Positions 11,902 through 12,060 of a DNA stretch of 23,623 nucleotides are shown one piece after another. Within the stretch, counting starts at the first letter, position 1, and each line of letters begins with the position of its first letter. Below the pieces are notes generated by a model, which saw only the letters and a list, made by a program, of their open reading frames with translations, had not been told where the DNA came from and did not search any database. The DNA is taken from assembly GCA_029856155.1 (NCBI GenBank), contig JAHQWL010000069.1:1-23623 (forward strand), read 5' to 3'. The stretch is from Promethearchaeia archaeon. Lineage in GTDB: Archaea > Asgardarchaeota > Lokiarchaeia > Sigyniarchaeales > SOKP01. Both the position numbers and the translations under genes were made by a program.

Positions 11902-12060
11902 TTAATCTTCGTCCCAATCGACATCTACGACTTTCTTTTTCTTTTCTTCTTCTTTTTCCTTATCTGTTTTATACGTAGCACCACCGGCTCCTGTCTCACC
12001 CATGCCACCTGGTGGAACTCCGTGTGGTGGAGCAACCCCCATACCACTCGCAGCACGTTG
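11902..12060 (-). pseudogene. dnaK: Orphan dnaK 3' fragment (last 52 codons + stop), intact reading frame
   Basis: Translates to [52 protein letters not shown], versus the DnaK end [59 protein letters not shown]. Confidence 0.93.

Follow-up and report, generated by a model that had tools for sequence, protein, structure and literature searches.

Organization of the dnaK-dnaJ Locus

The window analyzed in this study is a contig of 23,623 nucleotides (JAHQWL010000069.1, assembly GCA_029856155.1) from a Promethearchaeia archaeon of the Asgardarchaeota (Lokiarchaeia), whose assembly is called the source genome below. Between an intact dnaK gene and dnaJ, the window carries two genes for beta-helix proteins, an S41 peptidase gene and a short open frame that is homologous to the last 59 codons of dnaK (Table 1). 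This orphan end, referred to as tail A, consists of 52 sense codons and a TAA stop codon in a single frame on the reverse strand, and its homology to dnaK begins at the codons for QRAA. The corresponding end of the intact gene is referred to as tail B.

Table 1. Features of the dnaK-dnaJ locus in the window. G041 and G045 are genomes of the same genus.
Feature	Position	Strand	Description
dnaJ	9092..10222	-	Downstream boundary of the slot; Pfam DnaJ domains
Repeat unit 1	10274..12060	-	Tail A, intergenic DNA, beta-helix gene 1, its upstream region, dnaJ promoter motif
Beta-helix protein 1	10452..11771	+	NosD-like, membrane-anchored, 439 aa; PF05048/PF13229
Inferred crossover interval	11629..11762		Position in unit 1, at the 3' end of the beta-helix gene; 15226-15362 in unit 2
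Tail A	11902..12060	-	Orphan dnaK 3' end; 52 codons plus stop, without dnaK start and body; G045-type lineage
Illegitimate joint	12060..12061		AT-rich non-coding DNA meets the QRAA codons of the putative donor dnaK; abrupt end of dnaK homology
Decayed cargo gene start	12117..12222	+	First codons of a 105-aa cargo gene with the region upstream of them; 88% nt identity to G041
S41 peptidase gene	12364..13890	+	Cargo gene, 508 aa; PF03572; own upstream region ~12245-12363
Orphan dnaJ motif piece	13905..13936	-	Piece of the conserved dnaJ upstream motif; matches the genus motif before dnaJ
Repeat unit 2	13905..15680	-	Tail B, intergenic DNA, beta-helix gene 2, its upstream region, truncated dnaJ promoter motif
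Beta-helix protein 2	14082..15371	+	NosD-like, 429 aa; PF05048/PF13229
dnaK	15501..17522	-	Intact, 673 aa; PF00012; ends in tail B (15501-15680)

An initial annotation had described tail A as an intact, synonymously recoded alternative end of dnaK and not as a decayed copy. The 52 in-frame codons without stop codon or frameshift are indeed what is read at 11902-12060, and the two QRAA starts (15680 and 12060) lie 3620 bp apart as had been stated. The initial annotation did not contain the larger feature of which the tail is merely the end: the two repeat units form a 1.79-kb direct repeat with ~87% nucleotide identity, which extends 1.6 kb beyond the dnaK stop codon. The proteins encoded by the two beta-helix genes share 82% of their amino acids. 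The DNA between the units (12061-13904, 1.84 kb) is unique and contains the S41 peptidase gene. At one of its borders, no convincing match to the stub at 12061-12116 was found in the source genome or in the relatives' loci compared, and the adjoining remnant of the 105-aa gene, which is whole in G041, has an altered start codon and an early stop. At the other border, the dnaJ motif piece meets the 3' flank of the S41 gene at 13905/13904 with a short AATTT microhomology. A promoter and terminator scan with bacterial models was uninformative (6 found versus 3.9 ± 2.0).

The source genome has three grpE/dnaK/dnaJ loci, on contigs C26, C69 and C71. The other two DnaK proteins are 59-63% identical to that of the window, where grpE is divergent from dnaK.

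Both Joints Recur in Independent Assemblies

The source genome is metagenome-assembled and has a contamination of 5.7%, so the arrangement could have been an assembly chimera of two strains. However, the 12061/12060 joint and an identical tail A were present in two independent assemblies (contigs L120 and L121; Logan and JGI), and the S41 joint at 13905/13904 was present in these two and in two more JGI contigs (L122 and L123). The four contigs are 99.0-99.9% identical to the window, and L121 spans the whole arrangement, with beta-helix gene 1, tail A, the S41 gene and beta-helix gene 2 on one contig. Since both joints recur in independent assemblies, a chimera is very unlikely as far as assemblies can tell.

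In L120 and L121, gene callers have annotated a 46-aa open reading frame that starts at an internal ATG of tail A (11902-12042, reverse strand). L121 differs from the window at eight positions within 12160-12362, seven of them inside 100 bp, with the adjoining tail A unchanged; this cluster is probably a recombination patch within the population.

Tail A Is the End of a DnaK Allele From a Sister Lineage

Tails A and B share ~75-77% of their nucleotides. Over 48 alignable codons they differ by 21.5 synonymous and 7.5 non-synonymous changes, and the dN/dS ratio, whose calculation had been suggested, is ~0.045 (pS 0.66, pN 0.067). A silent bias of this size is not due to chance, as judged from the binomial probability of 1.9e-9 against neutrality. 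A recount of the block running from GETG to TYK agrees with the description given before, with eight of 11 codons unlike those of dnaK and every change silent. The terminal 10 residues are also the same in both tails, with three silent changes that include TAA/TAG, so the same terminal acidic motif is kept, and the Gly/Pro region of tail A is the shorter one (tails of 52 and 59 aa).

The term recoded is not supported, however, because eight silent codon differences out of 11 fall within the ordinary spread of functional alleles in the genus. Where functional alleles share these 11 residues, the mean number of differing codons is 5.6, and at least eight differences occur in 11 of 55 pairs. Judged from these comparisons of sequence, the silent differences of tail A are inherited interspecies divergence.

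We searched 54 genomes of the genus for the origin of the two tails. Tail A matches the end of the full-length DnaK gene of G045 at 155 of 159 nt (97.5%), and for tail B the DnaK end on L118, a metagenome contig, is the same at 177 of 180 nt. G045 and the source genome are ~90% identical overall, and just 8% of 159-nt tiles reach 97.4%. In a tree of the tails, the partner of tail A is G045 (100/96) and that of tail B is L118 (100/99), the tree being mostly unresolved beyond these two pairs; in a tree of the DnaK body, a single clade unites the source genome with G045 and L118 (100/100). A further A-type DnaK, from P0252, matches tail A at 132 of 159 nt and is accompanied by PKD cargo without S41. 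Both tails were thus once the ends of real DnaK proteins and belong to different lineages, as the initial annotation had surmised, and these lineages (G045-type and L118-type) are sister-level. The grounds for rejection that it had named were a non-significant silent bias together with the absence of a tail A-like end from every full-length DnaK of the relatives, and G045 has such an end. The 155/159-nt match identifies tail A as the end of a captured allele. A tandem duplication inside the source genome, followed by divergence or decay, would account for a 1.79-kb direct repeat. This origin is refuted by the tail tree and is hardly credible, given that tail A is 97.5% identical to the dnaK end of another species and ~75-77% identical to tail B, with a pS of 0.66.

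The dnaK-dnaJ Slot Is Variable in the Genus

In 28 genomes of the genus, the interval between dnaK and dnaJ ranges from 192 to 8659 bp and its cargo is varied and unrelated. The slot is empty in seven of the 28, where dnaJ follows 192-363 bp after dnaK. An S41 gene is found in the slot of G008, G014 and G059, and a beta-helix gene in that of G024, G041 and G045. Another metagenome contig, L126 (ENA ERZ936117, 12157-17049), has a slot with a 1630-aa PKD-repeat surface protein. Replacement of the cargo is the rule and stacking the exception (3/28), and among the genomes searched the orphan dnaK tail occurs only in the source genome.

The simple layout dnaK(B)-beta-helix-dnaJ is found in L118 and on a contig of P0003 (440-aa gene), for P0003 as judged by gene layout alone. 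G045 has an A-type dnaK and a beta-helix gene followed by a dnaJ promoter stub, with no S41 gene after it. Both G041 and G045 have such an orphan dnaJ promoter, together with the decayed remains of a few initial codons, and the source genome has its second promoter piece at 13905-13936. In G045:C6 (L076) and G041:C36 (L080), ~5 codons are left and the start codon is changed to ATA. The scar joins the 3' flank of a second beta-helix gene at the identical point in both, which indicates that it moved with the cargo between species.

When the source genome was compared with G045 in 367 tiles of 1 kb, 218 tiles aligned, with identities between 78 and 96% (5th to 95th percentile). The nearest relative of dnaK changes segment by segment. 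Together, the broad range of tile identities and the shifting relative of dnaK point to heavy interspecies recombination in the genus. A second variable locus lies in the window at 4626-7034 (reverse strand), where an 802-aa PPC-repeat surface protein with internal repeats of 345-354 bp has only 31-50% identity to its positional counterparts in relatives.

The Repeat Units Are Reciprocal Chimeras

The two repeat units were compared in a four-sequence test with G045 and L118, which serve as stand-ins for the true parents. The series of informative sites opens with 44 (12055-11762) that all place unit 1 beside G045 and unit 2 beside L118. Among the 46 sites that follow, 35 show the opposite grouping, nine the original one and two neither (Fisher 3e-16; 0/200 permutations). 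Since the grouping flips in both units, the units are reciprocal chimeras with the switch in the interval given in Table 1; the nine sites beyond it that still group unit 1 with G045 point to later patchwork exchange. Unit 2 is L118-type at its tail end (96-100%) and mostly G045-type past the crossover, and unit 1 is G045-type at its tail end and mostly L118-type past the crossover. A 40-nt deletion is common to unit 2 and G045 only.

The natural pairings are tail B with a gene-1-type beta-helix gene in L118, and tail A with a gene-2-type one in G045; they are swapped in the window. Beta-helix protein 1 has 87.5% amino acid identity to the product of the only such gene in L118. Immediately before the tail, 300 nt of dnaK share 95.3% of their positions with L118 and 88.3% with G045. 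The locus displays three features of Campbell-type stacking, namely direct target repeats around unique DNA, reciprocal chimeras, and a single-copy state in relatives.

A Proposed Route of Allele Stacking

We propose that tail A is a relic of allele stacking, to which we assign a probability of about 0.9. The contents of the slot would usually be exchanged by homologous recombination in the conserved flanks, and two versions would here have been stacked. The donor would have been a 3.6-kb piece of a G045-type chromosome that ran from the dnaK tail through a beta-helix gene and a dnaJ promoter stub to S41, and its ends would have been joined illegitimately at what is now the 12061/12060 joint. 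If this putative circle then recombined once, by homology within the 3' end of the beta-helix gene, with a dnaK(B)-beta-helix-dnaJ locus already in place, the outcome would be the circularly permuted donor order and the two reciprocally chimeric units. Tail A would then be the incoming broken end of the donor, and tail B the resident end that never moved. Equivalently, a linear piece could have undergone the single crossover first and end-joining afterward, with the same product. We consider this direction and route (incoming tail A, circularized donor, single crossover) the likely one, with less assurance than the stacking as such: the circular intermediate and the donor order are inferred from the permuted product, and the order A-type dnaK, beta-helix gene, S41 was not found in any relative examined.

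One observation against an incoming tail A is that dnaJ is nearer to G045 (~95%) than to L118 (~92%), which would fit tail A as the resident. In that alternative, an incoming dnaK(B)-beta-helix-S41 segment would have pushed tail A downstream in a dnaK(A)-beta-helix-dnaJ ancestor, by means of a homology anchor in dnaK and an illegitimate join at the QRAA codons, and the beta-helix genes would later have been swapped between the repeats. It would explain why dnaJ and tail A are both G045-like. [quoted passage not shown] However, a displaced tail predicts that unit 1 is G045-like and unit 2 L118-like throughout, while both flip at the same place, so that an extra reciprocal event would be needed. 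We regard displacement of a resident tail as unlikely, although it is the main competitor of the incoming-donor route.

Tail A Is Probably Drifting, and a Tail Switch Is Unlikely

All four differences between tail A and G045 are placed on the tail A branch. Three are non-synonymous and one is synonymous, against a neutral expectation of 78% non-synonymous, four changes having little power. Val9 and His13 of tail A occur in none of 116 functional tails. The third non-synonymous change occurs in functional alleles, and since Thr at codon 32 is present in P0252 it is natural variation, which leaves just Val9 and His13 as unseen residues. After four random substitutions, the frame stays open in 83% of cases; its intactness therefore shows the youth of tail A and nothing more. 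The statement that tail A is not a decayed copy is not supported by this pattern, which suggests decay, small as the numbers are. Tail A is probably no longer under selection and now drifting.

It had further been suggested that recombination could fuse tail A to dnaK and delete the S41 gene together with beta-helix gene 2, as a functional tail switch. In favor of a switch, the reading frame would be kept across the fusion, three assemblies share an identical tail A, and icd/icdC fusions arise on excision of e14 (PMC13626634). However, the proposed crossover site offers only 5+5 bp of identity, and the longest perfect match in the first 100 nt is 8 bp, whereas the repeat contains 286 windows of 20 identical bases, 285 of them beyond the dnaK stop codon, where 20 runs reach 20 bp or more. 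As the usable homology lies there, loss of the insert should keep tail B and restore dnaK(B)-beta-helix-dnaJ, the state of L118. There is also no recombinase nearby, and the two residues of tail A that functional tails lack speak against a switch. No fused product of dnaK and tail A was found among the 116 tails, which include contigs of the same population, and on contigs with ~99% identity to the window, tail B is the end of every DnaK. With the terminal acidic motif common to both tails, a switch would alter little even if it occurred. The suggested switch is thus highly improbable, and so is expression of the tail as a 46-aa peptide; both are far less likely than additive capture from sister species as a main route of gene gain in the genus.

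Orphan Gene Ends Recur Across the Source Genome

In the source genome, ~20 genes have downstream orphan tails and ~18 have upstream orphan heads within 20 kb, counts that come from an automatic screen and include some false positives; 19 of the tails were viewed individually. They range from intact and mostly synonymous to stop-ridden, and tail A is a young member of this age series. Contigs with orphan ends include C3, C5, C21, C26, C28, C51, C55, C71, C72, C88, C89 and C100, among others, and C100 carries four tails of a single gene. No joint motif common to the orphan tails was apparent by eye.

Site-specific integration of a mobile element, with the gene end replaced by a copy from the element (e14/icd type), would likewise leave an orphan 3' gene end downstream of the inserted genes. 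Against such an element, the 1.79-kb repeat reaches far past the gene end, and the joints vary between loci without a fixed core. No integrase or phage gene was found among the open reading frames examined in the window, and a PF00589 search of the source genome gave one tyrosine recombinase match, on a different contig (C81). A site-specific element is therefore very improbable at this locus.

Comparison With Known Systems

Displacement of Rhs C-terminal ends via circular intermediates has been described by Jackson et al. (2009; PMC2935791), and Kirchberger et al. (2017; PMC5361080) have reported orphan immunity arrays in the T6SS of Vibrio cholerae. As in these systems, recombination at a conserved anchor gene adds DNA without an integrase and leaves behind a silent orphan 3' end with its downstream gene, and the proposed route is either one crossover with a circular molecule or homology-facilitated illegitimate recombination. 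In contrast to them, the present case comes from an Asgard archaeon, its anchor gene encodes a housekeeping chaperone, and the tails are near-equivalent orthologous alleles instead of variable toxin tips. Since the crossover maps to a cargo gene, the orphan is, unlike in Rhs and T6SS, probably the incoming end and not the displaced one. The tips of Rhs/CDI arrays are non-homologous domains of distinct function and have cognate immunity genes, which does not apply to the dnaK tails.

Insertion with long target duplication has been described by Furuta, Abe and Kobayashi (2010), with no archaeal case passing their screen (PMC2853133). Both share an insert below 20 kb, long direct repeats, no other mobile element and a single-copy target in relatives; here, the duplication is 1.79 kb (>30 bp) and the insert 3.6 kb, without an integrase. 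The dnaK locus differs from it in its surface cargo of S41 and beta-helix genes and in a repeat that is 87% identical and reciprocally chimeric. Because restriction-modification genes are missing, we regard the locus as working like a long target duplication but do not class it as a member.

The e14 element has a site-specific integrase. In E. coli K-12, the e14 prophage associated with icd/icdC excises on SOS induction (PMC13626634). Like icdC, tail A is a mostly synonymous C-terminal fragment at the far end of inserted DNA, where a deletion can fuse it. The dnaK locus differs in having no linked recombinase and in that nearly all of its usable homology lies beyond the stop codon, so that a deletion keeps the present tail. 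As the defining features are absent, the locus is assigned neither to the Rhs arrays nor to the site-specific elements.

Implications for Gene Exchange in Asgard Archaea

The locus shows recent homologous transfer between lineages that are ~10% divergent, and an integrase-independent gain of genes at the border of a conserved gene; the crossover is placed within ~130 bp. It also calls for caution in genome scanning, since silent recoding and an intact frame are just what a young orphan gene end of sister-species origin displays, even with no present function. The stacking relic is of a known type; what merits further study is the process across whole genomes of Asgard archaea, and in a limited literature search we found no published description of such DNA exchange in these archaea. 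It is conceivable, with odds somewhat short of even, that integrase-free additive capture from sister species, by one crossover and one illegitimate joint and with dozens of datable gene-end relics per genome, is a main route of gene gain in the genus. If this is true, the dnaK locus would be a case in which both parents and the crossover can be mapped. As a single feature, tail A is a scar; its value lies in the evidence it provides on DNA exchange in Asgard archaea.
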